NCBI GenBank assembly: GCA_035290065.1
Contig: DATDVD010000032.1
Span: forward strand, 8,737-72,736
Length of the DNA: 64,000 nucleotides
Origin: Coxiellaceae bacterium
GTDB lineage: Bacteria; Pseudomonadota; Gammaproteobacteria; Coxiellales; Coxiellaceae
Reading direction: 5' to 3'
Shown: positions 26,004 through 52,296 of the stretch, piece after piece
Position numbering within the stretch: the stretch's first letter is position 1
How the letters are laid out: every line of letters begins with the position of its first letter
Notes under the pieces: model-generated
What the model was told of the DNA's origin: nothing
Seen by the model: only the letters and a program-made list of their open reading frames with translations
Databases searched by the model: none
Translations under genes and position numbers: made by a program

Positions 26004-26045
26004 TATGAATCTAGCCTATTGTCTTTAATGGGATTATATCTTACC

Positions 26046-32427: not shown

Positions 32428-32430
32428 TAC

Positions 32431-36808: not shown

Positions 36809-37470
36809 GCTATCACCCTTGCTGGTATTCCAAAAGCACGTTTTTTCTCTGGGATATTATGGATAACTACGGCACCTGCTCCAATAACTGCATGACAAGC
36901 TATTCTTTTATTGGGGACTACTGTGGAACTCATACCCATCATCACTAATTCTTCTACAATCACCCCACCTCCTAAAGTAACATTCGGAGAAATATTAACA
37001 AAATCTTTAATACAACAATCATGCTCAATTGTGGCATGAGTATTAATAATACAGTGATCTCCTATAACAGCTGATGCATTCACAACAGCACCCGGCATAA
37101 CCACAGTACCTTCCCCAATACGAGCTGTGCTGGCAACATAAGCACTAGGATGTATGGCTTGGATAAAGGAAAAGTAAGGAAACCTTCTTTTAATATCATT
37201 CACTAACCGATATCGTTGGTGGCAATCACCTATCGCTACCATTCCTTTTGCTTCTTTATATTTCGTGATTATTTTTTCTAATTCATAATCACTGCCCAAC
37301 ACTTCAATAGCATGAAATAACGAGCCTGTCTTTAATGCAATATCAACAATTCCAACCACGCGAAATAATGCAGCTTGGCTGTTTAAAATATCAATCACTA
37401 CCTTAGCCTGTCCACCTGAACCAAAAAGTAATACAGGAATGGCTGACGCAGATTGTATATCAAAGGGCAT
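36805..37470 (-). CDS. NeuD/PglD/LegH-family sugar N-/O-acetyltransferase (left-handed beta-helix)
   Basis: N-terminal Rossmann-like LLFGSGGQAKVVIDIL, followed by hexapeptide repeats (IGEGTVVMPGAVVNASAVIGDHCIINTHATIEHDC). Confidence 0.77.
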   Translation of the reverse strand: MPFDIQSASAIPVLLFGSGGQAKVVIDILNSQAALFRVVGIVDIALKTGSLFHAIEVLGSDYELEKIITKYKEAKGMVAIGDCHQRYRLVNDIKRRFPYFSFIQAIHPSAYVASTARIGEGTVVMPGAVVNASAVIGDHCIINTHATIEHDCCIKDFVNISPNVTLGGGVIVEELVMMGMSSTVVPNKRIACHAVIGAGAVVIHNIPEKKRAFGIPARVIA

Positions 37471-38089
37471 AATTTCCTTCCGTCATTAAAGCATTTAATA
37501 ATCTCAACCCTGATTTTCCGCTTTTTTCAGGGTGAAATTGAAGGCCATAAATATTTTGCTTTCTTACCATCGCTGTTATACGTAGACCATTATACCAACA
37601 ATATGCTACTTCATCTTGTTGATTTTCACATGCAAATGCATAGGAATGCATAAAATAATAACTGCTATCATTGACTCTTTCTGAGTGGCCTTGACTATCT
37701 TGATAGAGCATTTGCCAAGCCATATGGGGAATTTTTAGTGAAATAGAGTTAAAATGTCTCAAATGCTGTACACGTCCTGGAATTAAGCCAAGCCCTTTAT
37801 GGCTTCCAAATTCGTGTCCCTCATTTGCCAATAAATGCATGCCTAAACAAATGCCCATTAACATTTTCTGGTTATTCACGTGGCTTAAAATAGCTGGAAT
37901 AAAGCCGCGCTGCGCCAACGCATGCATACTATCTCCAAAAGCTCCTACACCCGGTAAAACAATACAGTGGGCATTTTCAAGTTGCTTAGGTTGATGACAC
38001 ACCGTTACGGTCACGCCTATGTGTTGAAGCGCCTGAGTTAAGCTAAAAAAATTACCCATTCCATAATCAATAATGTGTGCTGTTTTCAT
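37460..38089 (-). CDS. HisH-like glutamine amidotransferase (glycan-cluster paralog, WbuY-type)
   Basis: Class I GATase blocks (LPGVGAFG, GICLGMHLL, HSY and FHPEKSG). It sits in the glycan operon rather than in a his operon. Confidence 0.85.
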   Translation of the reverse strand: MKTAHIIDYGMGNFFSLTQALQHIGVTVTVCHQPKQLENAHCIVLPGVGAFGDSMHALAQRGFIPAILSHVNNQKMLMGICLGMHLLANEGHEFGSHKGLGLIPGRVQHLRHFNSISLKIPHMAWQMLYQDSQGHSERVNDSSYYFMHSYAFACENQQDEVAYCWYNGLRITAMVRKQNIYGLQFHPEKSGKSGLRLLNALMTEGNYAL

Positions 38090-38852
38090 ACGCCACTTCT
38101 CTGACTAAATAACCTTGTTGAATCAAATGGTGTTTAACATCCATCACGGATAAAACGTTATAATGGAATCGGTGAGCAATCGCAACCCCATCAGCATCCC
38201 CTTGTTGAATAACATCGGACGCATCGCTTAAGGAGCCCATACCTCCACTGGCAATCACAGGAATACTCACAACCTGGGTAACTGCTTTTACGAGCTCGAT
38301 ATCAAATCCCTGACAGAGTCCCTCTCGATCAACGGAGGTTAATAAAATTTCTCCCGCGCCTAAGGATTCCGCTTCTTTTGCCCATTCTACTACATCACGT
38401 CCCGTTTTATTACGTCCTCCGTCGGTATAGACCTCCCATTGCCTATCTCCTTTTTGTTTCGCTTCAATGGATAACACCGTGCTTTGCGAACCAAATCGCT
38501 TTGCAACCTCTGCAATAAAGGCGGGTGATTGTATTGCAGCGGTATTAATAGCCACTTTATCAGCGCCTGCACGCAATATACTGTCTACATCCTCTAAAGA
38601 TCGGATACCACCACCTACTGTTATGGGTACAAATATAGCTTTGGCTGTTTCAGCAATTAAAGAGTTTAAACTGTTTCGACCATACAAAGTAGCCACAACA
38701 TCCATATAAATAATTTCATCGATTCCCCTTTCATAATATCGCCTAGCAAATTCACGAGGGTCACCCACGACTCGAACACCTTCTAAATTCATAGGCTTAA
38801 TTAAGTTAGGCACTTTAATATCTAAGCGTGCAATCACGCGAATATTTTTCAT
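38067..38852 (-). CDS. HisF-like cyclase/synthase subunit (glycan-cluster paralog, WbuZ-type)
   Basis: (beta/alpha)8 HisF blocks ([35 protein letters not shown]). Confidence 0.85.
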
Positions 38853-38874: not shown

Positions 38875-39819
38875 TTAAACACCAAACATATTGTGAATCA
38901 ATTGCATTGTACGCATGCTCTCTTTTAGAGTAATCGCCCTGCTTTCTTGGCCCCGTATTTTATTAATCACTTCTCTGGCTTGATGATAAAATCCAGGCTT
39001 AAATTGTTTATCACATTCATCCATGGGGATATCTACGCGCTGCCTTTCTCCTTTTTTCTGGAGAGAAGCAATCTCCAGTGGCTGTAACATCCACCGTTTT
39101 GTAGGCGTATTGACACTGCAAGCCCACGGACCTGGCCCTTGCCAATGGCCCTCATATAAAGCATGGTCTCCACTATCAAACTCAATGTGCACAAGCATTA
39201 CATCCGTTTGCTCGCCTTTCCAAGGTTTAATAGGTTCTATTCGGCTGATTTGACCTCGAGCAAATGCCAGAATCAGATCAATCGTGTGAATAGAATTAGC
39301 ATACATAAATTTTTCAACCACACACGCAGGATGTCCATACTGATAAGCTTCAGAAAAATTTTGTTGATCCTGTATGTGAATATAACGCGATCCTGCTGAA
39401 GAATTTAAATCTTCCATTATCGATCTCACACTTGAATAAAAACGTCGATTAAGTCCTACATATACTTGGGCGTTGGATCGAAGGGCTGCTGCTGCAATAT
39501 CCATGGCATCTACATAATCATAACCTGCAGGTTTTTCCATTAGAACCAACCAGGGGTATTGAAAACATTGTTTGGCCACACAATTCGCTTCTACTTCAGG
39601 AACAGCGATAATAACAACATCAGCTCTCGTTCGATGATATAATTCTTCAATAGAATTGTACACATGTTCAACTTCAAATATTTTCTGCAACGCAAGGGAA
39701 CGTTCTTTGGTGCGGCTGTGAATACCCGCTATTTTAACACCCTCCAGTGCAGAAAAAGCTTTTAGATGCTCTTTTCCCATAGAGCCTGCGCCCACTAATG
39801 CTACTTTTACATTTTTCAT
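38875..39819 (-). CDS. Gfo/Idh/MocA-family NAD(P)-dependent oxidoreductase
   Basis: VKVALVGAGSMGKEHLKAF Rossmann N-terminus and an EKP motif (LMEKPAG). Confidence 0.75.
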   Translation of the reverse strand: MKNVKVALVGAGSMGKEHLKAFSALEGVKIAGIHSRTKERSLALQKIFEVEHVYNSIEELYHRTRADVVIIAVPEVEANCVAKQCFQYPWLVLMEKPAGYDYVDAMDIAAAALRSNAQVYVGLNRRFYSSVRSIMEDLNSSAGSRYIHIQDQQNFSEAYQYGHPACVVEKFMYANSIHTIDLILAFARGQISRIEPIKPWKGEQTDVMLVHIEFDSGDHALYEGHWQGPGPWACSVNTPTKRWMLQPLEIASLQKKGERQRVDIPMDECDKQFKPGFYHQAREVINKIRGQESRAITLKESMRTMQLIHNMFGV

Positions 39820-39830: not shown

Positions 39831-41363
39831 TTAAACAGCTGTTCTTTTTACTTTCTTCAAGTTACACAGTTTTTGAACCAAATGATTAATGCGTTCTGAT
39901 GATTTTCCATCCAAATATCCCCACTTATTTTTTTCTTTATGGGCCAATGCCTGCAGCTCTCTCAATTTTACTTCATTTTTTATAGAATAAACAGCCAAAA
40001 TAAATTCCTCTTTTGTATTGGCGTGCAACACGCTTGGCACATTTTTATAGTCTGTGTATTGGTAATAAAAAACATCATAGTTAATAACAGGCAATCCGCA
40101 TGCAATAGCCCAGCGTATGGTGGCGGAAGCAAAAGCTAAATACACATCGGCTACACTTACCAGAAGATCTGTCGGCATTAATGTGGGAAGAATACCCTGC
40201 TTTTCAAAAAGTTTACTTAATTCCAGGTAATTCGGGTGAGGACGAAAAATAATATGGTATTGCTCTTTTAAACAAGAAAGTGTTTCCACAATAAAACTGA
40301 CAAAACCAAAAATATCTTGGAAATCAAATCGAGGAACTATAGCTGATAACTGGTTAGGAAATCCACCTATAAAAAAAAGAGGTTTGTCGGGAGGAAGATT
40401 TAATTGATAATAAATTTTTTCTCGTTCGCGGATTTTATTCAAAGAATAGCGGGCTAAATAATCATCATAGAGAGCCCCTACCACTTGCATTTTGGATTTA
40501 GGAATTCCTGCCTTTAAATAATATTCATACATCTTTTCACTTTCGACAGCAATGAGATTAGCATATCCACTATTCATCATCCAAGGATCAGGTGGAACGG
40601 TACGCGTGAGGAGGTGGCCATATACATACGGTGCCGGCAATCTTAACACAGAATGCCCTTCTTTTTTCATTATCCATTTACGAAAAATAAAACCAGTTAA
40701 TTTATTGGAAAATAATTGCAGGCTGTAATGAGGTTGGTTTTTTAAAGATTGGAACGCTTCTTCTTGATTGGCAATAGTATAAGGCAAGATTAAACTGGGA
40801 ATATTATAATGATGGCCAGCAGCTATCATTACTGGCGTAACCAATCCAACAATGTCTTCAGGGAGGATAATAATATTAATGTTTAAATGAGAGAGTAATT
40901 TCCTGTAATTTTTTCTATTTTTAAAAAATAATGCGATAATGAAAAATAAAGATTTTATTAATCTAACTCTTTTCTTAATTATATTCTTAATTCTATATTT
41001 AAATTTTTCTAAAGCAGAAATAAAAACGATCATTTTAAAGCGTTTCAAGAAAAAATATAATTTTGAATTTTTTATAAAAAAACGTTTATTTTTCTTTTTA
41101 TTTTTCTTTTTCTGGGTTTTAAAATAATTTTTTTCCGAAAATTCTTCTATAAATCCATCTATTTGGATAAAAATTTTTATTAGTGATTTTTCTATTAATA
41201 TCTTTTTTAATACTAGCGAAAAAACATTATCATTATAGGGACTGAAAACGCAAAGCATAAAACATTCATATCCTTCGGAAGTAAAAAATTCTACAGCCCT
41301 TTTGATTTCATAAAAATCAGAAGGCCTCTGCGTAACAAATAAGATTCTTTTTCGATTAAACAC
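39831..41363 (-). CDS. uncharacterised HP-motif GT-B-like protein with a Lys-rich/hydrophobic insert; candidate CMP-ulosonic-acid transferase
   Basis: 510 aa with a GTG start. It is a paralog of 33491-34888. The HP motif is IIFRPHPNY, followed about 35 aa later by DVYLAFASAT. The insert reads KKKNKKKNKRFF...SLFFIIALFF. Confidence 0.55.
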   Translation of the reverse strand: MFNRKRILFVTQRPSDFYEIKRAVEFFTSEGYECFMLCVFSPYNDNVFSLVLKKILIEKSLIKIFIQIDGFIEEFSEKNYFKTQKKKNKKKNKRFFIKNSKLYFFLKRFKMIVFISALEKFKYRIKNIIKKRVRLIKSLFFIIALFFKNRKNYRKLLSHLNINIIILPEDIVGLVTPVMIAAGHHYNIPSLILPYTIANQEEAFQSLKNQPHYSLQLFSNKLTGFIFRKWIMKKEGHSVLRLPAPYVYGHLLTRTVPPDPWMMNSGYANLIAVESEKMYEYYLKAGIPKSKMQVVGALYDDYLARYSLNKIREREKIYYQLNLPPDKPLFFIGGFPNQLSAIVPRFDFQDIFGFVSFIVETLSCLKEQYHIIFRPHPNYLELSKLFEKQGILPTLMPTDLLVSVADVYLAFASATIRWAIACGLPVINYDVFYYQYTDYKNVPSVLHANTKEEFILAVYSIKNEVKLRELQALAHKEKNKWGYLDGKSSERINHLVQKLCNLKKVKRTAV

Positions 41364-42777
41364 TATAAAATGATTCCGAGATTTCGCGCAAATTTTCTTG
41401 CAATGCCAAATAACGTTGTTCTTGGGCTAAGTACTTTAAATAGTCATATAGTGCAATAGGATCACAAAAATGGGGTATCCATTTTTTTAATTGTTCTAAA
41501 TGATATATCTCACAAAATCCACCATCCTCTTTTTCTCCAATACTAATTGCTGGTATTTGTAACGCTACGGCTTCTATCATCATAAGCGAGCTAAAACCTA
41601 TCACAATATGGGCATCTAATAAAGATAAATAGGAATTAGCTTTAAGAGGCAACACATAACAACTTCTAGGAAAATCAACTGATAATTTTTCATAACAAGA
41701 CGACATTCTCCATTCGGTCGGATGAATTTTAATTATTACTTTGAATAAATTTTCCTTCTTTTTTGCCTGATAGTCTAACAAGGCTTTTAAAAAGTAGATG
41801 CCTTTACTTCTTACATGATTTTGAGTCGGGAACAATAAAATGATAGGTTGATATAAACGAGAAGGACGATTTTTTAATCGTCTATAAAAATTTATTTCTG
41901 AATGTGCAATGACTTTTATTTCACTTTCATGCCAGAATCCATTCGAAAGAAGAATGTCCTTCCAGGCACTTCCATAAACTAGAATTTGATCTGAAACGGG
42001 CATGTAAGACTTTAGTTTTCTAGCTGTTGATTTCCATGAATAATCGACATCATCAGGTCCAAACATGCCATGTTGTATCTCCACTACTGGTATTTTTAAT
42101 AATTTTGCTGCGGCTACTTCTCCTGGCTTTGCATCAGGATCTTGAATGAATAATTTTATTGCCTGCGTACGTCTAAAAAGATATTTGTAAAAATTATATT
42201 TTAGAAAAAAAATGGATAAATTAATGGAGCATTTTTTAAATATAGGGCCCATCAAATCCTCTGGAAAATAATTTTTAATTTCTTGGCACAACTTAAAAGT
42301 TGTATCTCGAATAGGCTTATTTTTTGATATTAAAATCGAAAAAAGAAAAAAAACATTTCCTACATAAGACTCATATAAGGTATTCTTTTTCAATTTCTTA
42401 TTTTTTACATCCCCCCATTCATAGAGAATCTTCAAAGCCTCATTCTCATATTCGTTTAACAATACTTCGAAAATCCTATCAATTTTTTCCCTTCCGTTTC
42501 CATCTTTTGGCGAATAAACAAAAATATACTTGGATTTTGAACAAAAGAAAATAAAAAGGAGGTTAACACATCCTTTGAAGCATCCAATAAATTTATTTAA
42601 TAAATTACTTCTTTTTTTATATTCATTTCTGGTTTTATAAGTAAGAAGAAAAGACCATAATTCACCCTTTATTATCGGCCACGCTAGCCATGAGTCAAAA
42701 TAAGTATTCAAAATCTTTTCATTTCTATCTAAAGACAGAAATATGTCATTTAAACGTCTGTGTGTTAATTGCTCCAT
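41356..42777 (-). CDS. uncharacterised protein with a hydrophobic N-terminal half and an HP-motif GT-B-like C-terminal half
   Basis: I prefer the ATG at 42777 (MEQLTHRR...) over the listed TTG at 42786. The HP motif is IIKIHPTEW, followed by AHIVIGFSSLMMIEAVALQIPAI. N-terminal hydrophobic segments are LLFIFFC and VFFLFSILI. Confidence 0.5.
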   Translation of the reverse strand: MEQLTHRRLNDIFLSLDRNEKILNTYFDSWLAWPIIKGELWSFLLTYKTRNEYKKRSNLLNKFIGCFKGCVNLLFIFFCSKSKYIFVYSPKDGNGREKIDRIFEVLLNEYENEALKILYEWGDVKNKKLKKNTLYESYVGNVFFLFSILISKNKPIRDTTFKLCQEIKNYFPEDLMGPIFKKCSINLSIFFLKYNFYKYLFRRTQAIKLFIQDPDAKPGEVAAAKLLKIPVVEIQHGMFGPDDVDYSWKSTARKLKSYMPVSDQILVYGSAWKDILLSNGFWHESEIKVIAHSEINFYRRLKNRPSRLYQPIILLFPTQNHVRSKGIYFLKALLDYQAKKKENLFKVIIKIHPTEWRMSSCYEKLSVDFPRSCYVLPLKANSYLSLLDAHIVIGFSSLMMIEAVALQIPAISIGEKEDGGFCEIYHLEQLKKWIPHFCDPIALYDYLKYLAQEQRYLALQENLREISESFYSV

Positions 42778-42789
42778 AGAAATCAAGAA

Positions 42790-43914
42790 TTAAACCTTTT
42801 GAGTTATTTTTTCATGAATGAAATTAACTATTTTTTCGGATGCCTTAGTTGGGTCCATAAGTTGCTTACTAGCCTTCCACACTTGATCACGTCCTTCTGA
42901 TGACATGGCAAAATCCAATACAGTCTCTAACACCTCTTTTTTGTTTACATGTAACGCCAAACCTAATTTTACATAAGGTGTTGTATCAATATGGGCTACA
43001 TTCTCACAATAAATATGGATTTCTGAATTAAATAACAAATTAATTGGTACAACGAAAGGGGTTTTAGAAAAATAATTTATGTAACTTGCATCATAGCTAC
43101 AATTTGAAAAAGGACTACAGATAACATCACACATAGAAAAAGCATCTTCTGGTGTAATATCTTTCAAAAAAATAGGATTTATGTCTTGTTCCTCAAACCA
43201 TTTTTTTGTGCAATTAGCATCTGATATGGATTCTCTTGGATGAGGACGATAAGCAATATTTATTGCATTAGTGCTAATTTTTTTAAAAGTTTGAATTAAA
43301 CTTTTTACCGTGTCCTCATATCCTTTTAAATTGTGTAATGCCTGCCCAAAATACCCAATGACAGGTTTTTTTTCATCTAATTTCAGAGCAATTCTGTTAT
43401 TTTTTCTACGGTTGGCGAAATCAATCGTACTATATTTGAAATATTTTGGAGCACCTAGAGCAAATGATTTTACTTGGTATCTAGAAGCAATTAAATCAGC
43501 AGATAAGGAATCAATACAAAAATAATAATCTGCTTTAGAACCATAAGCAGAATTAATATCGCCCCAAGAATCTTGCATAACAGATGTTGGAATTTTTCCG
43601 TGAGCCGAATATATTATATACTCGTCTATTCCACTGTCTCTAGCAGTAGAGTAGCCGGATAAAATAAAATCTGGTATTACTGTATTGATAATTTCTAGAC
43701 AAAGATTTAACCATTCTTGATCTTTATTTTTACTATTTCTCGAAGGAACGGCATCAATCAAGTTAGATATCAATCCATTTTTTTGAAAAAAAGAGAAGGC
43801 GGGTTCTTGAGCATAGATACAAACCTCATCTTTTCCAATTAATTTAATATATTTAACAATCTCAATAATATGAAGCGCAGAACCTACATCTCGAGAAGTC
43901 ACTAGCAATTTCAT
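42790..43914 (-). CDS. uncharacterised HP-motif GT-B-like protein
   Basis: 374 aa with a Rossmann-like start MKLLVTSRDVGSALH. The HP motif is IAYRPHPRES, followed by CDVICSPFSNCSYDAS. Confidence 0.5.
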   Translation of the reverse strand: MKLLVTSRDVGSALHIIEIVKYIKLIGKDEVCIYAQEPAFSFFQKNGLISNLIDAVPSRNSKNKDQEWLNLCLEIINTVIPDFILSGYSTARDSGIDEYIIYSAHGKIPTSVMQDSWGDINSAYGSKADYYFCIDSLSADLIASRYQVKSFALGAPKYFKYSTIDFANRRKNNRIALKLDEKKPVIGYFGQALHNLKGYEDTVKSLIQTFKKISTNAINIAYRPHPRESISDANCTKKWFEEQDINPIFLKDITPEDAFSMCDVICSPFSNCSYDASYINYFSKTPFVVPINLLFNSEIHIYCENVAHIDTTPYVKLGLALHVNKKEVLETVLDFAMSSEGRDQVWKASKQLMDPTKASEKIVNFIHEKITQKV

Positions 43915-44915
43915 GATGATAATATTCGTTTTAATAAATAATTTTTATCTTTAGCTCTATTCAATAAATACAAAAATTTATTCCACTCTTTTGGTTCCGT
44001 TCCAATGTTATTCAAATAACAATATGTTAAAACACAAAATGCTTTCAGAGCTAATAAATCTAAGATGGAAGAATGCCATTTCAAATACTGATAATACCCA
44101 CCCGCTTCACGATAAATTTTCAAAAATTCTCTTCCTTTTTGCACAATGATTTCTTTATCAGTGCATAGAATCATTATAAAACGTTCAATAATATACCCTA
44201 ACTCTACTATCACAGGTAAATAACTATGGGCCGTATCTTCAAAGTCAAAAAAAACAAGGCTGTTTTCAACAAGAAGAACATTACCTGGGTTCAGATCCCC
44301 ATGTAATGATTGGGCTTGGGCAGTATCTATCCAGCAATCAAAATTATATTGCTTTGCTAAGGCGATAACAGCTGGCATATTTTCTCTAAAATGGCATTCA
44401 CCTTTTATTATTTTTTTTCGAATATATTCTAATTCTTTATAGCGTTGCTCTGTTTTTTCCTGCCATTTTTTCGTTTCAGGATGATTCTTCAAAGTGAGAT
44501 GCAACTGCGCTATTGATTTAGCCAATACGCTAAGATCATTGTTCGATGAAGAAACACGCACTCCTTCCCAGTAAGGATATACCATAACTAGATAATTTTC
44601 TCCTTCGTGCTGAAAAAGTTTTTTTACAATACATGCGCATGCATTGATATTATATTCTTGCAGCCACTGGGCAATAACATCATGTTCAAGATAGCTGTGG
44701 CTATTTTTTTCAGGTATCAGCTTAATATAATGCAGAACATGATTACTATTTTTTAATACCAAATGAGCATTATTCGGGAAACTAAATTCTACAGAATAGA
44801 GTTGCCCATTAGCATCTAATGCCTTCAACAATGCATTGGATTTTGGAGTATTGACAGCCCATAATTTAGGCAAGCCAGGATTTAACTCAATCCACGCAGG
44901 ATAATTTGCTAGCAT
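43911..44915 (-). CDS. aminoglycoside/choline-kinase-fold (APH family) phosphotransferase
   Basis: Catalytic loop LHGDLNPGNVLL and the downstream FFDFED (DFE/DFG-like) motif. Confidence 0.65.
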   Translation of the reverse strand: MLANYPAWIELNPGLPKLWAVNTPKSNALLKALDANGQLYSVEFSFPNNAHLVLKNSNHVLHYIKLIPEKNSHSYLEHDVIAQWLQEYNINACACIVKKLFQHEGENYLVMVYPYWEGVRVSSSNNDLSVLAKSIAQLHLTLKNHPETKKWQEKTEQRYKELEYIRKKIIKGECHFRENMPAVIALAKQYNFDCWIDTAQAQSLHGDLNPGNVLLVENSLVFFDFEDTAHSYLPVIVELGYIIERFIMILCTDKEIIVQKGREFLKIYREAGGYYQYLKWHSSILDLLALKAFCVLTYCYLNNIGTEPKEWNKFLYLLNRAKDKNYLLKRILSS

Positions 44916-45996
44916 GAGAGTGATAAAGGTGATCCCAAGTTAAAGGCTGATTAGCTTTTATCGGTTTATTGATACGACATCCTTCGATCATATCCCATTT
45001 TTCGACAGGAATACCTAAGCAGGGAAACGCAAAGCGTATGGTCTCATAATTAATTTTATCACCGGATTTTAAATCTTTTTTAGCTACCAAACACTGACGT
45101 TGGGAAGAGCCTATTACTCCTTTGATGGGTTGACTCATATCACGATGATAATTTCCCAATGCTTGCCACACATCGTATACTTTATGCAGCACGGACTCGA
45201 GTTGATCAATGCCCATCGCATGCACAATATCCTGGTCTAATTCATTAGGATCCGTATAAATGCCTTTTTCCAAGACAACTGCGCCTAGCGCAATGGCTGC
45301 ATATAACATTTCTACACCTTTATAATGATCAGACAAACCGACGGGAACACCAAAACACTGTTGGTAAGTTTCCAGAATCCGAAGATTGTGGGCCTCAGGT
45401 AAGGCGGGATGACCATCCGGGCTATGCTGCACGATAATTGCCTGACAGCCTGCTTTTCTAGCTGTATCCACCGCTGTAAACACTTCTGCCAAGGTAGCAC
45501 GTCCTGTATCAATCACCATCGGAAGGCCCAGTCTCGCCACGTGACGTATTAAAGGAATATGGACCACATTCGCTGAAGCAATTTTCAAGCTACTGGCTCC
45601 TTGTGCTTTAGCAAAATCAGCTGCTTCAAAATCATAGACAGATACAATAAAAGGAACTTTTGATTGCCTTAGGAGTTCAAATAATTGTGCATAATGCTCA
45701 AGGCTCATGCATTTCCGTTCTATTAATGCCCGATAATTTTCGACCTTGATATGGCCTTCCTTATCACAATAGGTTTCATTTAATGCGCTTGGAATACAAA
45801 TATCCGAGTTGCTGAGAATTTCGGTTTTTAGTACGGCAGGCTGATGCGATACTTGCGAGAAAATTGCAATAATACGCTGTACCAAATCCTTGGCTAACTT
45901 TAAATCCCCATTAAAATAACTACCTACTTCTGCAAAAACTAAAGGGGGATGAGCTTCTCCTACTAGAAATTGTCCGAATGTTATTTCATTTTTCAT
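44887..45996 (-). CDS. divergent NeuB-family (PEP-condensing ulosonic acid synthase-like) protein with a SAF domain
   Basis: The overall NeuB layout and GLSDH block are kept, but AEAGVNHNG is replaced by AEVGSYFNG, KFQ by KTE and EKHFT by EKGIYT. A C-terminal SAF-like domain is present. Confidence 0.65.
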   Translation of the reverse strand: MKNEITFGQFLVGEAHPPLVFAEVGSYFNGDLKLAKDLVQRIIAIFSQVSHQPAVLKTEILSNSDICIPSALNETYCDKEGHIKVENYRALIERKCMSLEHYAQLFELLRQSKVPFIVSVYDFEAADFAKAQGASSLKIASANVVHIPLIRHVARLGLPMVIDTGRATLAEVFTAVDTARKAGCQAIIVQHSPDGHPALPEAHNLRILETYQQCFGVPVGLSDHYKGVEMLYAAIALGAVVLEKGIYTDPNELDQDIVHAMGIDQLESVLHKVYDVWQALGNYHRDMSQPIKGVIGSSQRQCLVAKKDLKSGDKINYETIRFAFPCLGIPVEKWDMIEGCRINKPIKANQPLTWDHLYHSHASKLSCVD

Positions 45997-46006
45997 AGTA
46001 TTGACC

Positions 46007-46741
46007 TTAACCCAATTTGGTAACCTTAATAAAGTAATGATCGATTAATAATTTCAATCCATTGGTAAGTTGTCGCGAACGAGAAGCTGTGGTCATAGTC
46101 CACGTCCGGACAGGATCCTCTCGTCTAGGCAAATCCAGTGTGACTTCGAATTTTTCAAAGGCGAAGGCACATGAATAACTAGAAAGGATATCGTGCATTG
46201 TTTCTAAGCTATATATATTCCAACCTTTTTCCCATGACCCTACTCTTGCATTGATCCGTTTTCTATGAATAGTAATGAGGTCCACGCCGTATTCATTTAA
46301 GGGGGAAAAAATATATATCTTTCCACCCGGTTTGGCAGCAGACAGTATATTTTCCCAGAAGGTAACTAATTCTTTTTCATCAAAAATAGACATAACGCCT
46401 ACAGCCGTTATCAAATCAAATTTTTCTGTCATTTCCAATGGAAAATTTAAAACAGATTGATTTAAAAAAGTATGCTTTGGCAAAACATTTTTTGCCTTAT
46501 CCAGTAAGGCATCAAAAATATCTACTCCAGTGAAATGAAAATTAGAATAGTGATTAGATAAGAAATGAATTAACTCCCCCGTTGCACACCCAATATCTAA
46601 ACAATGGCTATTGTTCGGCAATTTATCTTGCTCAACCATATGCAAAAGTCGAAGAAAGGACTGCTTTGGTTGAGAAGACCACTCTTCTTGAATATAATGA
46701 TAATAATTTTTATAACGTGCTTCGTTTTTCTGATTGATCAT
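46007..46741 (-). CDS. class I SAM-dependent methyltransferase
   Basis: SAM motif I CLDIGCATGEL and the post-I/II acidic residues (FTGVDIF). Confidence 0.75.
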   Translation of the reverse strand: MINQKNEARYKNYYHYIQEEWSSQPKQSFLRLLHMVEQDKLPNNSHCLDIGCATGELIHFLSNHYSNFHFTGVDIFDALLDKAKNVLPKHTFLNQSVLNFPLEMTEKFDLITAVGVMSIFDEKELVTFWENILSAAKPGGKIYIFSPLNEYGVDLITIHRKRINARVGSWEKGWNIYSLETMHDILSSYSCAFAFEKFEVTLDLPRREDPVRTWTMTTASRSRQLTNGLKLLIDHYFIKVTKLG

Positions 46742-47459
46742 TGCAATGTTCTTTCATTATTAATTCAGCTAATTGAAAATTGATCTGATTATCAATATCA
46801 ATACTCTCTTCTTTTTTCATAAAATAAGCCATACAAGGCCGCTGATAAAAATTAAATGTTTTTAGAAATCCTTTTACTGTAACCGCATAAATAGCACCAT
46901 TTTGTTGATATACCTTGGGCAATTGCTGCATTTGAGCTTCCATAGCCACATCATCTACAAACGGTTCAATAGCATCTTGATTGATCATTACTGCTTTAGC
47001 AGGATGAGTCTCCACCTCGCAGACACTCATTCCACTAGCCCATTCACCTTGCAAAAAAGTGTGCAAACATGCCGTAAGATGATACTCTGTCCTTAAAGGG
47101 GAAGTAGGCTGTAACAAAACGATTGTGTTAAACTGTTGATTAAGCGCTGCATAATGTTGCAGAACGTGCAGAACTACATCGTTGTTTCGAATCTTATCTT
47201 TTGATAAATCTGAGGGGCGATCCACTACCTCAGCACCTTCCCTAAGTGCCACCTGTTTAATGAAGAGATCGTCTGTAGAAACCACCACTTTATCAATCAA
47301 TCGACAATTCAGCGCTGCCATTATTGTATAAGAAACCATGGGTTTTCCTGCTAGTAATAGTTTATTTTTTTGAGGGAGACGCCTAGAAAAACCTTTAGCA
47401 GGAATAATCGCTAAAATAGGCTGTCGATTTTTTTGCAGACAGGATTCACGTGAAGGCAT
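46710..47459 (-). CDS. acylneuraminate cytidylyltransferase-family (CMP-ulosonic acid synthetase) enzyme, copy 1
   Basis: ILAIIPAKGFSRRLPQKNKLLLAGKPMVSYTI, LLQPTSPLR and QQNGAIY blocks of the CTP_transf_3 family. Confidence 0.8.
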   Translation of the reverse strand: MPSRESCLQKNRQPILAIIPAKGFSRRLPQKNKLLLAGKPMVSYTIMAALNCRLIDKVVVSTDDLFIKQVALREGAEVVDRPSDLSKDKIRNNDVVLHVLQHYAALNQQFNTIVLLQPTSPLRTEYHLTACLHTFLQGEWASGMSVCEVETHPAKAVMINQDAIEPFVDDVAMEAQMQQLPKVYQQNGAIYAVTVKGFLKTFNFYQRPCMAYFMKKEESIDIDNQINFQLAELIMKEHCNDQSEKRSTL

Positions 47460-49251
47460 ATTTTTTTATTAACCCTTGAAATAAACCTTCTGTATTACAC
47501 AGTGTTTCAAATTTTCCTTCCGTAATAATCTTGCCCTGTTCAAGCACATATATCCAATCACAGTTCTTTAAAGTATGTAAACGATGTGATACAAAAACAA
47601 TAGTTTTTTTAGGCCTGAGCGACATGACTCGATTTAAGATATTTTCTTCTAATTCTAAATCTAAATTTGCCGTTGCCTCATCCAAAATTAAAACATCCGG
47701 ATTTAAATACAAAGCGCGAGCAATGCCAATTCGTTGTCGCTGCCCACCGGATAGCGTTAAACCATTCTCACCAATAGGCTGATATAAATAATCCTCTCCT
47801 CGTAATGCACAATCCTCCAATTCTACTAAAAGCATTAACTCTCGCACCCTAGAAATATCAATATCGTTAGGTTCTATCCCATATGCAACATTACTGATGA
47901 TGGAATCTGGAAGAATATAGGTGCTTTGTGGAACATAGCCTACATTATTAAGCCATTTCTTTTTTATCGCGATAGAACTTAAATTCATGCCATCTATTAC
48001 AATTTGCCCATCAGAAGGATCTATCAACCCAGTCAATAAATTGACCAGTGTCGATTTTCCAGCCGCTGATTTTCCTGCAAGACCAACGAACTGGCCTGCA
48101 TGGATGACAATATTAATATTTGAAAAAATCTTCGGGCTATCTTTTTTGTACTGATAACATACATTAGAAAAAACAATCTTCTCTTGAAAAAGAAGCCTAT
48201 CTTGAGTAGCAAAAGAAGAACAAATATCAGATTCCTTTTCATATTTTGATAAATCTGTGGCAATAATGTTTAAATATTCAAGGCCACCACCTAATAGCTG
48301 CATTCCTGAAAAAATTCTATTAATCTGAGGAAGCATCCTAAACATAATCATGAGTAAAACTGTTAGCACGGAAAAAGCATGAGCGTGGTCATTTCTATGT
48401 AAATAAAATAATATTAAAACCAATATACCCACCATAACTCCTGCTTCCAAAACGAGAGGAGGGAAAAAAGAAAGAAATTGCCCTATATGTTTATGAGAAT
48501 AATTCTTTTCTTCCAAAAATGAAAATATATTAATAAAAAAATCTTCTTTCCCAAATATTTTTATTTCTCGTATCGAACTAAAGGATTTAGATAAGGTTTT
48601 TTGCTTTTCCTGGTGAACTTCCTGAGCTTCCTTTTGTAGTTTTTTATTTTTATCTTTAAAAAGAAAATAAAAAAATGCTAAAGGGATTAATAAAGCGGAC
48701 ATTAACAATGCCCCTTGTGGAAAAACCATACAAAGCAACACAACAAGCCCTGTCATAATTGAACTTGCAACAATAATATTAAAAATGGGCATCACATAGT
48801 GATCAAAAACTAATCCTGCTGTTGAAATGTTTCGAATACCATCTGCTGAACCTTGTTCTATATGAAACTGATAATTTGCGTAAAGATACATTTTCATCAG
48901 TCGATTACTTAATTTCGTTTTCCAATCAATCAATAACTTCATTTGAAAATAACGAAATGAAATCATATAGCCTATTCTGAATAAAATTAAAGCTACAATA
49001 GATGAAAGAAAAACAGCACTCAGTGTATGCTCGTTCGTAATATGCATTACCCTGATGACCCATGCTAATGATCTAAAATTATGGATGGCTTCTGGCTTTA
49101 TCAAGAGATAAATAAAAGGAAAAATCAGGGCAATACCAACAGCTTCTATAATGCCTGAAAATATACTCATGCATACCAGGCCAATGACTTTGACTTTTTT
49201 GCTTTTGAACTCGTTTACTAAAAAACGGCTTGCTGCTTTATTGAGAATCAT
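47446..49251 (-). CDS. fused TMD-NBD ABC exporter (MsbA/PglK-like architecture)
   Basis: Six N-terminal TM helices. All NBD motifs are canonical: GKSAAGKST, LSGGQRQRIGIARAL, LILDEATANLD and VSHRL. Confidence 0.87.
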   Translation of the reverse strand: MILNKAASRFLVNEFKSKKVKVIGLVCMSIFSGIIEAVGIALIFPFIYLLIKPEAIHNFRSLAWVIRVMHITNEHTLSAVFLSSIVALILFRIGYMISFRYFQMKLLIDWKTKLSNRLMKMYLYANYQFHIEQGSADGIRNISTAGLVFDHYVMPIFNIIVASSIMTGLVVLLCMVFPQGALLMSALLIPLAFFYFLFKDKNKKLQKEAQEVHQEKQKTLSKSFSSIREIKIFGKEDFFINIFSFLEEKNYSHKHIGQFLSFFPPLVLEAGVMVGILVLILFYLHRNDHAHAFSVLTVLLMIMFRMLPQINRIFSGMQLLGGGLEYLNIIATDLSKYEKESDICSSFATQDRLLFQEKIVFSNVCYQYKKDSPKIFSNINIVIHAGQFVGLAGKSAAGKSTLVNLLTGLIDPSDGQIVIDGMNLSSIAIKKKWLNNVGYVPQSTYILPDSIISNVAYGIEPNDIDISRVRELMLLVELEDCALRGEDYLYQPIGENGLTLSGGQRQRIGIARALYLNPDVLILDEATANLDLELEENILNRVMSLRPKKTIVFVSHRLHTLKNCDWIYVLEQGKIITEGKFETLCNTEGLFQGLIKKYAFT

Positions 49252-50561
49252 ACAGTTTTATAGACAGCGTGGCGTAATGTCCATCTATTTTCCGTCCATC
49301 GCCACAAATGAGGAGATCTAAATCGATTAGTGAGTGCTTCAAGATATTTTCGATCAAAAGGAGGATGTTCCAGTTTTTTATAAGCTATAGGGAATTCTTT
49401 TTCTGGAATGCTCAAATAGGAAAAATTTTCGGACTCAAATCGGTCCGAATACTCCCCATCAAATCGTTTAACCAATGCAATGCCTTCTTCACGCGTAATT
49501 TCTCCGCATCGAATTTCTTGGGAAGAGTCATACGTAGCACGCCCAATACCAAATTTAATGAATGTGGTGTAATAATGTAAATCATCCATTTTATCATCGA
49601 TACTGCTGTATTTGCTGTAGGTCCCTGCTGTTCGTTCAGGCGCTGGTTTAAATCCCCCTTTTTCCATGGCATAATAATAACAGCCTTGTGGATGCCAAGG
49701 TAAATAATATCCCAAGTAATGCACTTCGATTTTTTTAGCGTTCAATGTCTCTGGGTGAGTAGGTAAATAAGGTTCAAGATCTATTAAGGTTAATCCAAAA
49801 TCTCGCTGAAGTTCCTGTACATGGACGCCAGCCAAATAAGTCTCGAAGATATTTGAGGAAGTAAAATAACGAAAATCTTTGGTAGGCTTTTCCCCTTCTT
49901 CAATAGCATTTCCATATTCCATCGGGTTTTCACCATAGAATACAAGTGGAATATTTAATTGAGCGGCTAGTTTAGGTGGAAAATACATTTGGCCCACAAT
50001 AAAAGGCTGGAAGGGATGAAATAATTTTTCCAACGCTAATCGGGTCAATAAACGATGCACACGCCCATTGGGTGTAAACAAATAATTATCAAATCCCGCG
50101 TGAATCCAAGCCTGAAAATTTTTCCATCCCCATTCTGTGTAAATATGAGGAGCCCACGTCACCGTGAGAGGATTCATTCCATATTCATATTTTAATTTAT
50201 GAGCTGCATAAAAACTGTCTTTTCCTCCCGAGCCTGGCACTAAACAATCATAGTGGCCATCCGTTCGACGATATCGGTCACATAATTCTCGCAATAATTT
50301 TTTCCTCGCTACCCAATCAGTGGACTTTTTTCTCTCTGCTACCGAACACGCAGAACAAACACCTTCGTTATTAAAATTCACGGTGGGTTTTTTAGTTTGA
50401 ATAGTATGCTTAAATTCTCGCTCAGAATTCGGTTTTTGATTGCTATAGGTGCACCGTTTGCAAAATTGCACATGAGGAGGCAAGCCATACAAGGCTACTA
50501 AGCCATTTTCTTTCTGGTAATCCTGTACATTAATGTTTTCTGGATAACTAACCATCGACAT
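49248..50561 (-). CDS. N-acetyl sugar amidotransferase (PP-loop ATP pyrophosphatase; WbuX/PtmG-type)
   Basis: N-terminal Cys pairs (CKRCTYSN...CSACS) and the PP-loop VPGSGGKDSFYAA. ATGA overlap with the ABC gene. Confidence 0.8.
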   Translation of the reverse strand: MSMVSYPENINVQDYQKENGLVALYGLPPHVQFCKRCTYSNQKPNSEREFKHTIQTKKPTVNFNNEGVCSACSVAERKKSTDWVARKKLLRELCDRYRRTDGHYDCLVPGSGGKDSFYAAHKLKYEYGMNPLTVTWAPHIYTEWGWKNFQAWIHAGFDNYLFTPNGRVHRLLTRLALEKLFHPFQPFIVGQMYFPPKLAAQLNIPLVFYGENPMEYGNAIEEGEKPTKDFRYFTSSNIFETYLAGVHVQELQRDFGLTLIDLEPYLPTHPETLNAKKIEVHYLGYYLPWHPQGCYYYAMEKGGFKPAPERTAGTYSKYSSIDDKMDDLHYYTTFIKFGIGRATYDSSQEIRCGEITREEGIALVKRFDGEYSDRFESENFSYLSIPEKEFPIAYKKLEHPPFDRKYLEALTNRFRSPHLWRWTENRWTLRHAVYKTV

Positions 50562-50582: not shown

Positions 50583-51395
50583 TTACCAACAACTTAAACC
50601 ACCGTCTACCACAATACGTTGCCCTGTTACATAACTTGATGCCTCAGAGGCTAAAAATAATAAAGCGCCTGTTAATTCGGAAGGTTCGGCCATTCTAGCC
50701 AGCGGTACCCGTGCCGCATAATTTTGCTGGAACCGATTGTTTTGACCACTGGCCACCCCTCCTGGCACTAACGTATTTACACGAATACGATGAGGAGCCC
50801 AATAAGTGGCTAAGTATTGTGTTAACCCTATTACACCTGCTTTCGAGGCTGAATACACCGCCGGTGTATTAATTTCCATGCCTAAATAACAAGAGCCTTC
50901 ATAAATGCGCTGATCAGGCGCCACCATACCATAAATAGAAGCGGTTTGAATAATGCTGCCGCCCAAATCCTGTTTCAGCATTTGTTTTCCTACCGCTTGT
51001 GCAACCAGAAACATGCCGTCTAGATTAACCGACATGATGTCTCTCCACGTTTCCAAAGAATATTCTTCAAACGGTGTAAAAAATGCTTCTAAATCATTGC
51101 CTTTTGTAGCAGCATTGTTATGCAAGATATGAATAGCACCAAAATGATCGGCCACTTCGCCAACCATATTTTTCACACTCTTTGAATCCGCTACGTTACA
51201 AGCCATGGCTTTCAAGGTTGCATGAGGGAATTCCCGCAAGAGCGTGGTGACACATTCTTCCGCTCGTGTTCCATCAATGTCCACCACCGCCACCTTGACA
51301 GAAGCACTCACTAGTGCCCGACAAAATTCCTGTCCTAGAACCCCACCTCCTCCTGTCACAATGGCACATTTATCTTTCAAATCAGGATAGCACAC
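50583..51395 (-). CDS. short-chain dehydrogenase/reductase (SDR)
   Basis: TGGGGVLG cofactor motif, YSASK catalytic motif, GTG start. Confidence 0.85.
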   Translation of the reverse strand: MCYPDLKDKCAIVTGGGGVLGQEFCRALVSASVKVAVVDIDGTRAEECVTTLLREFPHATLKAMACNVADSKSVKNMVGEVADHFGAIHILHNNAATKGNDLEAFFTPFEEYSLETWRDIMSVNLDGMFLVAQAVGKQMLKQDLGGSIIQTASIYGMVAPDQRIYEGSCYLGMEINTPAVYSASKAGVIGLTQYLATYWAPHRIRVNTLVPGGVASGQNNRFQQNYAARVPLARMAEPSELTGALLFLASEASSYVTGQRIVVDGGLSCW

Positions 51396-52296
51396 AAGAA
51401 AGCTCCGCCGTTTGTCCTGGTATTAAAGAGTGACCTACTCTTAACACTTCTATGATTTGCGAAACTTGTTTCGGATCAATGGGAGGTTGCCGATCCTTTA
51501 CCATCTGAAAAAACCGAATCAATAAACGTTTAAAGGCAGAAAAATTATCGGTCAATTGGCATTCAAATAAACCTTTTCTACCGTAAATAGATAAATGGAA
51601 TACTTTGGCCACTGCGCCTAAACACGATAAATTAAACACCAAACCACTTTCAAGCTGCATTGAAAAACAGTCATAAGGCGCCTGCAATTTTGTAATGCTT
51701 TTTAATGGCCCCCCATGGAAAGCCGCTACAGCATCTAACATATGGACACCGTATTTTAGAAAATCATTGGCGACAACTGCTTGAATTAAGTAAGGGTCTC
51801 CAATACATTCCGGTGATTGTTTAAAAGAATCCAGCTCTTTAGCATAACGAAACGCAGACGTTGACATGCACAGGCCTTTTTCCAGATAAGGCATAAGATA
51901 ATGTAATTCTTGCTCATTAATCGTAAGCGGCTTATCAATAAAAACGGGTAATCCTGCTTGTAAAAAAGGCTTGGCCAAACTAACATGAGATTCATAATCA
52001 TCCCGCGCTATAATAACCGCATCTACTTGAAACACCATCTCTTCTAAAGAATCAACCGCATGAGGAATATAACAGGCTCGGCATAAAAGTTCCGTCTGAG
52101 TTTTATCTTGCGTCCAAGCATGTGTAACGCGAACATCAGGGATACCTATCTCAGAGGGGTTCCGTACATTTAAATAATCTAAAATAACTGCCCAACCCGT
52201 TTTAGAAAATTCGAGAGGATCATAGCCATTAATAATGGCAGAGAAAGAGAAGGGGTGGCCATTTTGCGGGCTATAACCAATGAGGCCTATTTTCAT
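51382..52296 (-). CDS. Gfo/Idh/MocA-like oxidoreductase
   Basis: I placed the start at the ATG at 52296 (MKIGLIGYSPQNG...), which overlaps the upstream SDR stop as TAATG. The listed 52365 start would overlap that gene by 70 nt. Confidence 0.7.
   Translation of the reverse strand: MKIGLIGYSPQNGHPFSFSAIINGYDPLEFSKTGWAVILDYLNVRNPSEIGIPDVRVTHAWTQDKTQTELLCRACYIPHAVDSLEEMVFQVDAVIIARDDYESHVSLAKPFLQAGLPVFIDKPLTINEQELHYLMPYLEKGLCMSTSAFRYAKELDSFKQSPECIGDPYLIQAVVANDFLKYGVHMLDAVAAFHGGPLKSITKLQAPYDCFSMQLESGLVFNLSCLGAVAKVFHLSIYGRKGLFECQLTDNFSAFKRLLIRFFQMVKDRQPPIDPKQVSQIIEVLRVGHSLIPGQTAELSCVLS

Follow-up and report, generated by a model that had tools for sequence, protein, structure and literature searches.

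The 64,000-nucleotide stretch examined here, hereafter the window, covers positions 8,737 to 72,736 of contig DATDVD010000032.1 from a Coxiellaceae bacterium (assembly GCA_035290065.1), and carries a glycan locus that includes a divergent member of the NeuB family of nonulosonate synthases, which we term NeuBL. An initial annotation had placed four overlapping or adjacent genes at 43911-47459, encoding a cytidylyltransferase, a methyltransferase, the NeuB paralog and a kinase-fold protein, and the list of open reading frames (ORFs) bears out all four on the minus strand. In transcription order, the cytidylyltransferase (CTPb) and methyltransferase genes overlap by 32 nucleotides (nt), a 10-nt gap separates the methyltransferase from NeuBL, NeuBL and the kinase overlap by 29 nt, and the kinase gene is itself overlapped by 4 nt by the next downstream gene, which encodes a 374-residue protein (F374). 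The 43911-47459 genes are translationally coupled. Among sequencing runs, matches to the window were found only in DNA metagenomes from groundwater and soil, and in no RNA run. The genes concerned, with their Legionella pneumophila counterparts, are:

46710-47459, minus strand: CTPb, a cytidylyltransferase resembling cytidine 5'-monophosphate (CMP)-nonulosonate synthetases (249 amino acids (aa); CTP_transf_3)
46007-46741, minus strand: class I S-adenosylmethionine (SAM) methyltransferase (244 aa; Methyltransf_12/25/31), ortholog of ORF8 (lpg0769)
44887-45996, minus strand: NeuBL, a divergent protein of the NeuB family (alpha-carboxyketose synthases) that ends in a SAF domain (369 aa), ortholog of ORF9 (lpg0768/lpp0833)
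43911-44915, minus strand: APH-fold small-molecule kinase (334 aa), ortholog of ORF10 (lpg0767/lpp0832)
42790-43914, minus strand: F374, a GT-B fold protein nearest NeuC/WecB (374 aa), ortholog of ORF11 (lpg0766/lpp0831)

Pfam recognised NeuB and SAF domains in NeuBL (1.8e-44 and 1.3e-8, respectively), and its scores against the NCBIfam equivalog models were far under the cutoffs, at 164.7 versus 399.65 bits for NeuB (TIGR03569) and 162.1 versus 340.25 bits for PseI (TIGR03586). Identity to canonical nonulosonate synthases is about 22-24%. An AlphaFold2 (AF2) model with a predicted local distance difference test (pLDDT) score of 87.6 displayed the NeuB fold, and Foldseek matched it best to Neisseria meningitidis NeuB (NmNeuB; 1xuu, E 5.6e-28, template modelling (TM) score 0.77/0.81), with KDO8P synthases next. 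The model also contains a conserved, family-specific β-hairpin (residues 73-87) inserted in the β2-α2 loop.

The initial annotation had described three motif swaps relative to the canonical copy elsewhere in the window, and these are all present in the alignment: AEAGVNHNG is replaced by AEVGSYFNG, FVKFQ by VLKTE, and IIEKHFTL...GPDH by VLEKGIYT...DQDIVH, with GLSDH kept. The FVKFQ/VLKTE pairing was ambiguous with HMMER alone, but the AF2 model places residues 54-59 (AVLKTE) in strand β2, which supports equating K57 with NmNeuB K53 and E59 with Q55. Using solved structures of NmNeuB, Campylobacter jejuni PseI, Bacillus subtilis SpsE and a Leptospira NeuB as references, both pairwise and profile alignments set Gly245 of NeuBL opposite NmNeuB His236 and His224 opposite His215, in agreement with the earlier proposal that the histidine of the EKH block had become glycine and that of the SDH block had been retained. 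These two histidines are the metal ligands of NmNeuB (PMC11339185).

A homolog search with NeuBL returned 481 proteins (E<=1e-10), from sources that include Legionella species, Devosia, Bradyrhizobium, Thalassospira, Betaproteobacteria and Vicinamibacteria, and residue patterns were counted in 150 distinct family members with 42-100% identity to the window protein, 149 of which were aligned at some positions. His236 is replaced by Gly in every aligned member (149/149), and the family likewise has Asp for Ser154 (D163; 150/150), Asp or Glu for Asn184 (D194 in the window protein; 149/150), Asn for Glu134 (N143; 150/150), His for Tyr186 (H196 in the window protein; 149/150), Glu for Gln55 (E59; 150/150) and Arg for Met157 (R166; 149/150). 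At the position of Arg314 there is an aromatic residue, Phe in 138, Trp in 10 and Tyr in 1 of 149 members (Phe324 in the window), while NmNeuB residues E25, K53, K129, S132, S213, H215, E234 and D247 are kept across the family.

Sialic acid synthase uses E25, E134 and E234 as catalytic residues (PMC8208679), and NeuBL keeps the first and last of these, as E23 and E243, with Asn143 at the E134 position. In NmNeuB the phosphate of phosphoenolpyruvate (PEP) is bound by Ser132, Ser154, Ser213 and Asn184, and N-acetylmannosamine (ManNAc) is contacted by Gln55, Tyr186, Asp247 and Arg314, the last reaching the N-acetyl carbonyl (PMC11339185). The PEP-ligand positions K57, K138, S119 (at T110), S141 and S222 are kept in NeuBL, with S154 and N184 changed to D163 and D194. 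Arg314 is described as essential and fully conserved among bacterial enzymes, and as absent from the mammalian synthase of N-acetylneuraminic acid 9-phosphate (Neu5Ac-9-P) (PMC11339185). Given the roles of these residues in NmNeuB, the changes in NeuBL cluster at the N-acyl pocket and at the metal/PEP-phosphate site. A compensating histidine shifted from its usual place near Gly245 was considered and rejected, as a His two residues further on occurs in only 82/150 family members and is Tyr in the window protein; other family-specific histidines are H196, H203 and H259.

NeuBL is no pseudogene: its family is large and strongly constrained, with 77 invariant columns among 22 sequences of 51-62% identity. 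NeuBL is furthermore the best conserved of the proteins encoded with it, at 42-62% identity compared with 22-37% for the kinase and F374. As its substitutions are fixed family-wide, changed chemistry or a changed substrate is favoured over decay. Of the two options raised in the initial annotation, altered metal coordination with a different substrate fits the co-varying substitutions, while a catalytically dead protein is unlikely, and the residue patterns argue for a specialised enzyme. In one locus, from a metagenome-assembled genome (MAG) of Asaia bogorensis (L024, around 10001-11062), two NeuBL-like genes, 33% and 55% identical to window NeuBL, flank the kinase and F374 genes, a pair that may reflect a duplication or a second subtype.

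F374 gave no match to Pfam, NCBIfam or Protein Data Bank (PDB) profiles, and homolog searches with it returned 4 and then 12 proteins. However, its AF2 model (pLDDT 91.4) retrieved sugar-nucleotide 2-epimerases (WecB, MnaA, SiaA) as the top 18 Foldseek matches in the PDB, 17 of them acting on UDP-GlcNAc and one on UDP-2,3-diacetamido-2,3-dideoxy-glucuronic acid, with E down to 1.2e-13 and TM scores of 0.62-0.71 (1f6d: E 1.2e-13, TM 0.68-0.71), followed by MurG and MshA. We take F374 to be a strongly diverged enzyme of the NeuC/WecB type, or alternatively a glycosyltransferase. A polysialyltransferase assignment was set aside, since, although an HP motif fits, the epimerases rank first and no sialyltransferase or TagF protein appears in the Foldseek top 50; it remains as a caveat.

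The kinase scored 27.7 bits against the Pfam APH family (PF01636; cutoff 23.2), carries the motif HGDLNPGNVLL, and belongs to a family in which APH was matched by all six members searched (best 2.1e-17). Its invariant residues are K65, H205-G-D207...N212 and D224-x-E226-D227, corresponding to the ATP-binding Lys, the catalytic loop and the metal-binding Asp. The relatives with solved structures, YihE (1.3e-6), amicoumacin kinase, corramycin kinase and maltokinase, are too distant to name a substrate. A phosphatase gene, whether of the haloacid dehalogenase (HAD) type or other, was seen neither in the window locus nor in the related loci surveyed below.

We surveyed 37 non-redundant loci, collected from context look-ups and a scan of one genome per species, by mapping their ORFs to the window proteins with BLAST over 10 kb on either side of each NeuBL homolog, so that absence means absence from that span. 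The window genes that serve as points of reference are:

49248-50561, minus strand: WbuX-type N-acetyl-sugar amidotransferase, acetamidino-forming (TIGR03573 1.4e-106, 356.9 bits, above cutoff)
38067-38852, minus strand: WbuZ/HisF-like partner of the amidotransferase (TIGR03572 8.3e-86)
37460-38089, minus strand: HisH-like glutaminase, partner of the amidotransferase (TIGR01855 6.8e-56)
47446-49251, minus strand: ABC exporter with fused transmembrane and nucleotide-binding domains, MsbA/PglK-like (Pfam ABC_membrane and ABC_tran; PglK 8.8e-71, below cutoff)
41356-42786, minus strand: F476, a TagF-like GT-B paralog and candidate glycan-building enzyme (profile match to TarL/Cps3D)
39831-41363, minus strand: F510, a second TagF-like paralog, related to ORF6/ORF7 of L. 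pneumophila
33491-34888, plus strand: third TagF-like paralog, of the F463 type (465 aa; related by BLAST)
38875-39819, minus strand: Gfo/Idh/MocA oxidoreductase, a companion of the cassette (NCBIfam and Pfam)
29320-30399, minus strand: canonical NeuB/LegI (TIGR03569, 445.2 bits)
30372-31553, minus strand: canonical NeuC/LegG (TIGR03568, 450.6 bits)

NeuBL, the kinase and the F374 homolog are consecutive in 31 of the 37 loci, with the kinase found in 34 and the F374 homolog in 35; at least two of the loci in which one or the other is missing (L012 and L040) are cut by contig ends. The amidotransferase is the most constant neighbour of this triad. WbuX lies within 10 kb in 30/37 loci, and in minimal ones, L015, L017 and L025 among them, it immediately precedes NeuBL; in nine loci the gene just upstream of NeuBL is an amidotransferase gene (WbuX, HisH or HisF). 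The minimal loci are ordered WbuX-NeuBL-kinase-F374 or WbuX-HisF-HisH-NeuBL-kinase-F374 and come from Desulfarculus, Bdellovibrionales, Methylococcaceae and MAGs labelled Rickettsiales. Other genes are more variable: any CTP_transf_3 gene and a TagF-like paralog are each present in 30/37 loci (the F463-type paralog directly upstream of NeuBL in nine), the methyltransferase in 25, the Gfo/Idh/MocA oxidoreductase of the 38875-39819 type in 20 (48-59% identity), and the fused ABC exporter in 18, while canonical NeuB occurs within 10 kb in only six.

The survey shows that the triad is co-inherited and tied to an acetamidino-forming amidotransferase, and often to an N-methyltransferase and a CMP-nonulosonate synthetase. 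The functional unit was therefore mis-bounded when it was drawn at 43911-47459, as the constant partners are the downstream F374 and the WbuX/HisH/HisF amidotransferase. The resulting cassette is mobile and phylogenetically widespread, extending over Gammaproteobacteria, Alphaproteobacteria, Betaproteobacteria, Bdellovibrionota, Desulfobacterota and Acidobacteriota, with the methyltransferase and CMP-sugar synthetase as frequent but optional add-ons.

From sequence comparison the cassette is the counterpart of L. pneumophila ORF8-ORF11 (lpg0769-lpg0766). A locus of the serogroup 1 (Sg1) type (L041) has the order GT2, GT2, polysialyltransferase-like ORF3, wzt, wzm, ORF6, ORF7, methyltransferase ORF8, NeuB-family ORF9, APH ORF10, 372-aa ORF11, ORF12, ORF13 and wecA, and identities to the window proteins are 49% for ORF8, 54% for ORF9, 34% for ORF10 and 36% for ORF11. 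The window arrangement matches the L. pneumophila locus layout described by Petzold et al., who predicted ORF8-12 (lpg0769-lpg0765) to form a single operon and named the region for late modification of lipopolysaccharide (LPS) (PMC3766260). ORF8 N-methylates legionaminic acid at its 5-acetimidoyl group (PMC3766260, PMC13306086); mutation of orf8 in strain 130b removes the N-methyl groups, and orf8 by itself is enough to complement the mutant (PMC13306086). When a transposon disrupts ORF8 or ORF11, the epitope of monoclonal antibody 20/1 is lost but the O-antigen stays (PMC3766260).

When strain Paris was evolved experimentally, lpp0833, lpp0832 and lpp0831 acquired frameshift, nonsense and indel mutations that went to fixation, with lpp0833 (ORF9) hit by frameshift in 8/18 lineages, and the loss-of-function mutations in ORF9, ORF10 and ORF11 arose in separate lineages evolving in amoebae (PMC12308824). 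Those in lpp0832 and lpp0831 were found only in lineages with Acanthamoeba passage or host switching, and the function of lpp0833 is described by the authors as not understood (PMC12308824). Taken together, the epitope loss in ORF8 and ORF11 mutants and the recurrent ORF9-11 mutations suggest one shared, dispensable pathway. The triad can thus be lost in L. pneumophila, where it influences O-antigen epitopes. In non-Sg1 strains the full cassette lies in the serogroup-specific region, and the non-Sg1 O-chain has been reported (Knirel 2001) as a homopolymer of the D-glycero-D-talo (4-epi) isomer of 5-acetamidino-7-acetamido-legionaminic acid (Leg5Am7Ac). The Sg1 strains Corby, Alcoy, Uppsala 3, Ulm, Camperdown and Heysham carry ORF8/ORF9 variants that are ~31% identical to the Philadelphia type (30.6% for the ORF9 type of the Corby/Knoxville group), with ORF10/ORF11 above 93% (PMC3766260, Table 3). 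With ORF10 and ORF11 constant beside a divergent ORF9, the kinase and F374 can evidently work with a quite different NeuB-family partner.

The window methyltransferase aligns to ORF8 of the Sg1-type locus at 49% identity over 233 aa (E 7e-85), in the same gene order upstream of the NeuB-family gene, and scores 30.5 with the Pse_Me-ase model (cutoff 112). As to the methylated ulosonic acid suggested by the initial annotation, the comparison points to N-methylation of the 5-acetimidoyl group, an activity shown for the L. pneumophila ortholog alone, and not to an O-methyl or methyl-phosphate sugar.

CTPb matches CTP_transf_3 (PF02348, 2.3e-23) and scores 144.6 bits with PseF, under the 205.7 cutoff. 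Its PDB relatives are CMP-Neu5Ac synthetases (6ifd, 3.4e-35; 1eyr, 1.9e-34), to which it is closer (124.8 bits) than is the other window copy at 53077-53790 (95.7 bits), the two copies being 30% identical. The proposal that the branch has its own CMP activation needs correcting, as the cytidylyltransferase does not always accompany the cassette. No CTP_transf_3 gene lies within 10 kb in 7/37 loci and none is adjacent in L. pneumophila Sg1-type loci, while in L031 and L036 a CTPb homolog is the sole CTP_transf_3 gene and stands beside canonical NeuB/NeuC. Own CMP activation therefore does not define the branch. A teichoic-acid-like polymer made from cytidine diphosphate (CDP)-linked units, for which the kinase, the cytidylyltransferase and the TagF-like enzymes together might have been responsible, was set aside, because CTPb has the typical character of a CMP-nonulosonate synthetase and the chains known from Legionella are glycosidic.

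The 465-, 476- and 510-aa neighbours are paralogs of each other by BLAST and have no family assignment. A joint profile of these TagF-like proteins matched the teichoic-acid and capsule polymerases TarL (8va1, 2.5e-6) and Cps3D (8qoy, 7.2e-6), a similarity that lies in the C-terminal nucleotide-binding domain and includes its HP motif (H355-P356, invariant); F476 has weak Epimerase_2 and Glyphos_transf Pfam matches, and F510 is 29% and 27% identical to L. pneumophila ORF6 and ORF7, respectively. From these profile matches they are candidate glycan builders, putatively GT-B transferases of the cytidine-nucleotide type.

Several other units were observed in the window. The other cytidylyltransferase belongs to a four-gene unit on the minus strand at 50583-53790 (CTP_transf_3, short-chain dehydrogenase/reductase (SDR), Gfo/Idh/MocA, SDR), which is intact in about half of related loci at 42-71% identity, ranges from Legionella to Alphaproteobacteria and Vicinamibacteria, and has the look of an independent module with a CMP-sugar as its substrate. 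The region 53783-58083 (minus strand) encodes a complete GDP-type front end for legionaminic acid, with an extra Gfo/Idh/MocA gene, comprising a PtmE-like protein with CBS and nucleotidyltransferase domains (MurU-like match, 9e-33), the aminotransferase LegC, which at 458 bits exceeds its cutoff, and the dehydratase LegB, which at 470.7 bits falls just short of its cutoff of 475. At 31558-33444 (minus strand) there is a radical-SAM protein of 337 aa together with a 289-aa protein without a family. The radical-SAM gene occurs in 7/37 loci, with identities of 59-66% except for the Desulfovibrio locus L038 (31%), and is joined by the 289-aa partner in five of the seven (L008, L018, L022, L025 and L028). 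The pair could C-modify the nonulosonate; in Magnetospirillum, an ulosonic acid whose backbone is longer by one carbon and which is CMP-activated has been reported (preprint 10.64898/2026.04.20.719630). Where the glycan locus ends (24897-26981), two more proteins may also tailor sugars, one with a methyltransferase domain (368 aa) and one a de-N-acetylase of the PIG-L type (353 aa). Unconnected with the glycan locus are the type I secretion genes at 3334-10482 (HlyD-like, two ABC exporters), which lie beside a gene for a 619-aa protein with 14 matches to calcium-binding repeats-in-toxin (RTX) motifs.

A second nonulosonate-type branch beside canonical NeuC/NeuB, as first proposed, is a reasonable reading of these data. 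Our preferred interpretation, held tentatively as one that comes close to an even chance, is that the cassette forms a parallel side branch of nonulosonate synthesis, in which a NeuC-like enzyme, a kinase and a NeuB-like enzyme yield a modified nonulosonate. The catalytic steps of NeuBL, the kinase and F374 are deduced from sequence, predicted fold and synteny. F374 would release a free hexosamine from a nucleotide sugar, the kinase may phosphorylate an intermediate of the branch, so that the sugar is possibly transiently phosphorylated, and NeuBL, as a catalytically active synthase, would condense the hexosamine with PEP in a sugar pocket remodelled to accept a cationic (acetamidino-type) and/or phosphorylated substrate. 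The NeuBL site for the metal and the PEP phosphate would be rebuilt around the new carboxylates that replace His236, with Asp163 and Asp194, next to His224, perhaps holding in its stead a metal that bridges the PEP phosphate. KDO8P synthases exist in metal-dependent and metal-independent forms. The product could then be CMP-activated, whether by the neighbouring synthetase or by a NeuA encoded elsewhere in the cell, N-methylated on its 5-acetimidoyl group by the ORF8-type enzyme, and would enter a legionaminic-acid-type surface glycan as a minor or modifying residue. We infer that an aromatic residue for Arg314 and Glu for Gln55 are what a cationic amidinium would favour, and such a fit would explain the tight linkage to WbuX/HisH/HisF.

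Several points weigh against this interpretation. No phosphatase gene accompanies the cassette in the loci surveyed, and, as the known Legionella O-chain sugars are 9-deoxy, the precursor hexose would have no 6-hydroxyl to phosphorylate. In both C. jejuni and L. pneumophila, the substrate of amidination is believed to be CMP-Leg5Ac7Ac, the 5,7-di-N-acetylated sugar, so that an amidino-specific synthase would not be needed, and L. pneumophila Sg1 makes Leg5Am7Ac with a canonical NeuB. With two of the four PEP-phosphate ligands now carboxylates, the use of PEP itself is not assured. The hhalign comparison of F374 with NeuC was non-significant (local; probability 1.4%, E 0.037), although the alignment is full-length and collinear and pairs VTSRD with VTSSRAD, two acidic motifs, and the invariant YRPHPRE with the PNAD region. 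Furthermore, one of six F374 family members weakly matched Pfam A-2_8-polyST (1.6e-4). F374 could therefore be a transferase, its assignment as an epimerase coming from fold rank and motifs. The literature searched contained no biochemical study of ORF9-11 or the triad enzymes.

A more far-reaching form of the same interpretation, which we regard as possible but rather unlikely, is that NeuBL represents a mechanistically new class of NeuB-fold enzyme with a carboxylate (Asp163/Asp194) metal site and an aromatic/Glu sugar pocket, and that with the kinase and the NeuC-fold enzyme it makes a nonulosonate beyond the reach of canonical synthases, whether amidino, 4-epi or transiently phosphorylated. 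If true, bacteria would have a counterpart to the epimerase-kinase-synthase route of animals, and the biosynthetic step so far missing for Legionella O-antigen variants would be accounted for.

The triad could also follow the phosphorylated route of animals outright, with F374 as a hydrolysing 2-epimerase, the APH protein as a hexosamine 6-kinase and NeuBL as a nonulosonate-9-phosphate synthase, as in GNE plus NANS or in the KDN-9-phosphate pathway of Bacteroides, and the product, a nonulosonate with a 9-hydroxy or 9-phospho group, would then differ from legionaminic acid. We consider this unlikely, although the three folds of the triad, encoded by translationally coupled genes, are precisely those that such a route uses, and NeuBL lacks Arg314 as does the mammalian Neu5Ac-9-P synthase (PMC11339185). 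The β2-α2 loop that contacts ManNAc O6 in NmNeuB is replaced by the conserved hairpin, with K79 (145/150) and an invariant R89 that, together with the new near-invariant R166 and R300, could bind phosphate, and several minimal loci have neither LegB nor LegC within 10 kb. However, none of the surveyed loci has a phosphatase gene, and the extra acidic residues in the NeuBL active site do not suggest phosphate binding. The substrate of an APH-family kinase is not predictable, and the O-chain residues reported for L. pneumophila, the N-methylated ones included, are 3,5,7,9-tetradeoxy sugars.

Alternatively, and in our view just as improbably, the triad may remodel a ready-made nonulosonate or a finished chain. 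In one version legionaminic acid would be converted to its 4-epimer (D-glycero-D-talo), with the kinase activating a hydroxyl and NeuBL acting like a metal-dependent aldolase or hydratase. The non-Sg1 strains, for which the 4-epi-Leg5Am7Ac homopolymer has been reported (Knirel 2001), carry the full cassette, and C4 is the centre set by the synthase step. From background knowledge, the loss of two PEP-phosphate ligands and gain of two carboxylates and one Arg resembles the sites of class II pyruvate aldolases. In the other version a phosphorylated, N-methylated terminal cap would end chain growth, comparable to the kinase/methyltransferase terminator WbdD of Escherichia coli O9a. Mutants in ORF9-11 keep their O-antigen and change only in epitopes or fitness (PMC3766260, PMC12308824), and Petzold et al. 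termed the region one of "late LPS modification" (PMC3766260). Against the first version, a different facial selectivity would need NeuBL alone and not the kinase and F374 as well, and epimerases or aldolases of the NeuB fold are without precedent; against the second, the methyltransferase is an N-methyltransferase and not a phosphate methyltransferase (PMC13306086), and phosphate in the Legionella O-chain has not been reported.

The least likely reading, and a very improbable one, is that NeuBL has no catalytic activity and serves the kinase and F374 as a scaffold or by binding sugar. In its favour are the loss of a His that binds the metal, of E134 from the three catalytic Glu, and of the essential Arg314. 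Against it, the remaining catalytic and PEP-binding residues are invariant, as are the replacements D163, D/E194, H196, N143 and R166, and the best conserved protein of the cassette has the pattern typical of an enzyme with fixed small-molecule chemistry.

In Legionella the cassette occupies the part of the LPS loci that determines the serogroup; it affects the monoclonal-antibody subgroups of L. pneumophila and has been a repeated target of selection during amoeba passage. The loss of His236, Glu134 and Arg314 in every family member challenges the list of residues held to be "essential" in sialic acid synthases. Furthermore, the triad consists of three small soluble proteins and offers a testable entry to bacterial nonulosonate diversification, possibly including the origin of 4-epi-legionaminic acid and N-methylated residues. 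The cassette itself was already known from L. pneumophila, where its members are annotated as "NeuB family", "phosphotransferase" and "hypothetical", while the family-wide loss of His236/Glu134/Arg314 with compensating invariant residues, the NeuC-like fold of ORF11, and the distribution of the triad with WbuX across phyla are not described in the literature searched.

Compared with known systems, NeuBL shares with canonical NeuB, LegI and PseI (1XUU, 1XUZ, 2WQP) the TIM barrel, the SAF/antifreeze-like domain and the retained residues, but differs in its substituted residues, the β2-α2 hairpin and sub-cutoff equivalog scores; it thus lacks several of their defining features, although the fold and half of the catalytic residues are still there. 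KDO8P synthase, the next-best structural match, belongs to the same alpha-carboxyketose synthase superfamily and is a precedent for loss of a metal ligand that need not abolish catalysis, although it is a different family with Cys/Asn ligands and the analogy is mechanistic only. With C. jejuni PtmG/PtmH, which perform acetamidino formation and N-methylation of CMP-legionaminic acid, the cassette has in common that a WbuX-type amidotransferase and a SAM methyltransferase go with a legionaminic acid pathway; to our knowledge, C. jejuni does not possess the NeuBL, kinase and F374 triad. The window methyltransferase belongs to the Philadelphia-type ORF8 group, whereas PtmH is related to the other ORF8 group (Petzold et al., PMC3766260).

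Vertebrate GNE and NANS combine an epimerase fold, a kinase and a NeuB-fold synthase as a unit, as does the triad. The GNE kinase is of the ROK type, whereas that of the cassette has an APH fold, and in contrast to the vertebrate GNE/NANS/NANP set no phosphatase gene was seen in the cassette loci. The vertebrate synthase has no equivalent of Arg314 (PMC11339185). The closest counterpart is L. pneumophila ORF8-ORF12, with the same gene order and a NeuBL of the same Gly-for-His family, and there function has been assigned to ORF8 alone. The window organism, in contrast, is uncultured and comes from groundwater and soil metagenomes, and its locus has no ORF3 polysialyltransferase-like gene and no ORF12 homolog. 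Upstream of the cassette it has a cytidylyltransferase and the fused ABC exporter where Sg1 has Wzm/Wzt. One sugar cassette thus seems to be combined with different machineries for assembly and export, split Wzm/Wzt (L041, 3283-5555) and an added polysialyltransferase-like ORF3 in the Sg1-type locus, and a fused MsbA/PglK-like exporter in the window and most non-Legionella loci.

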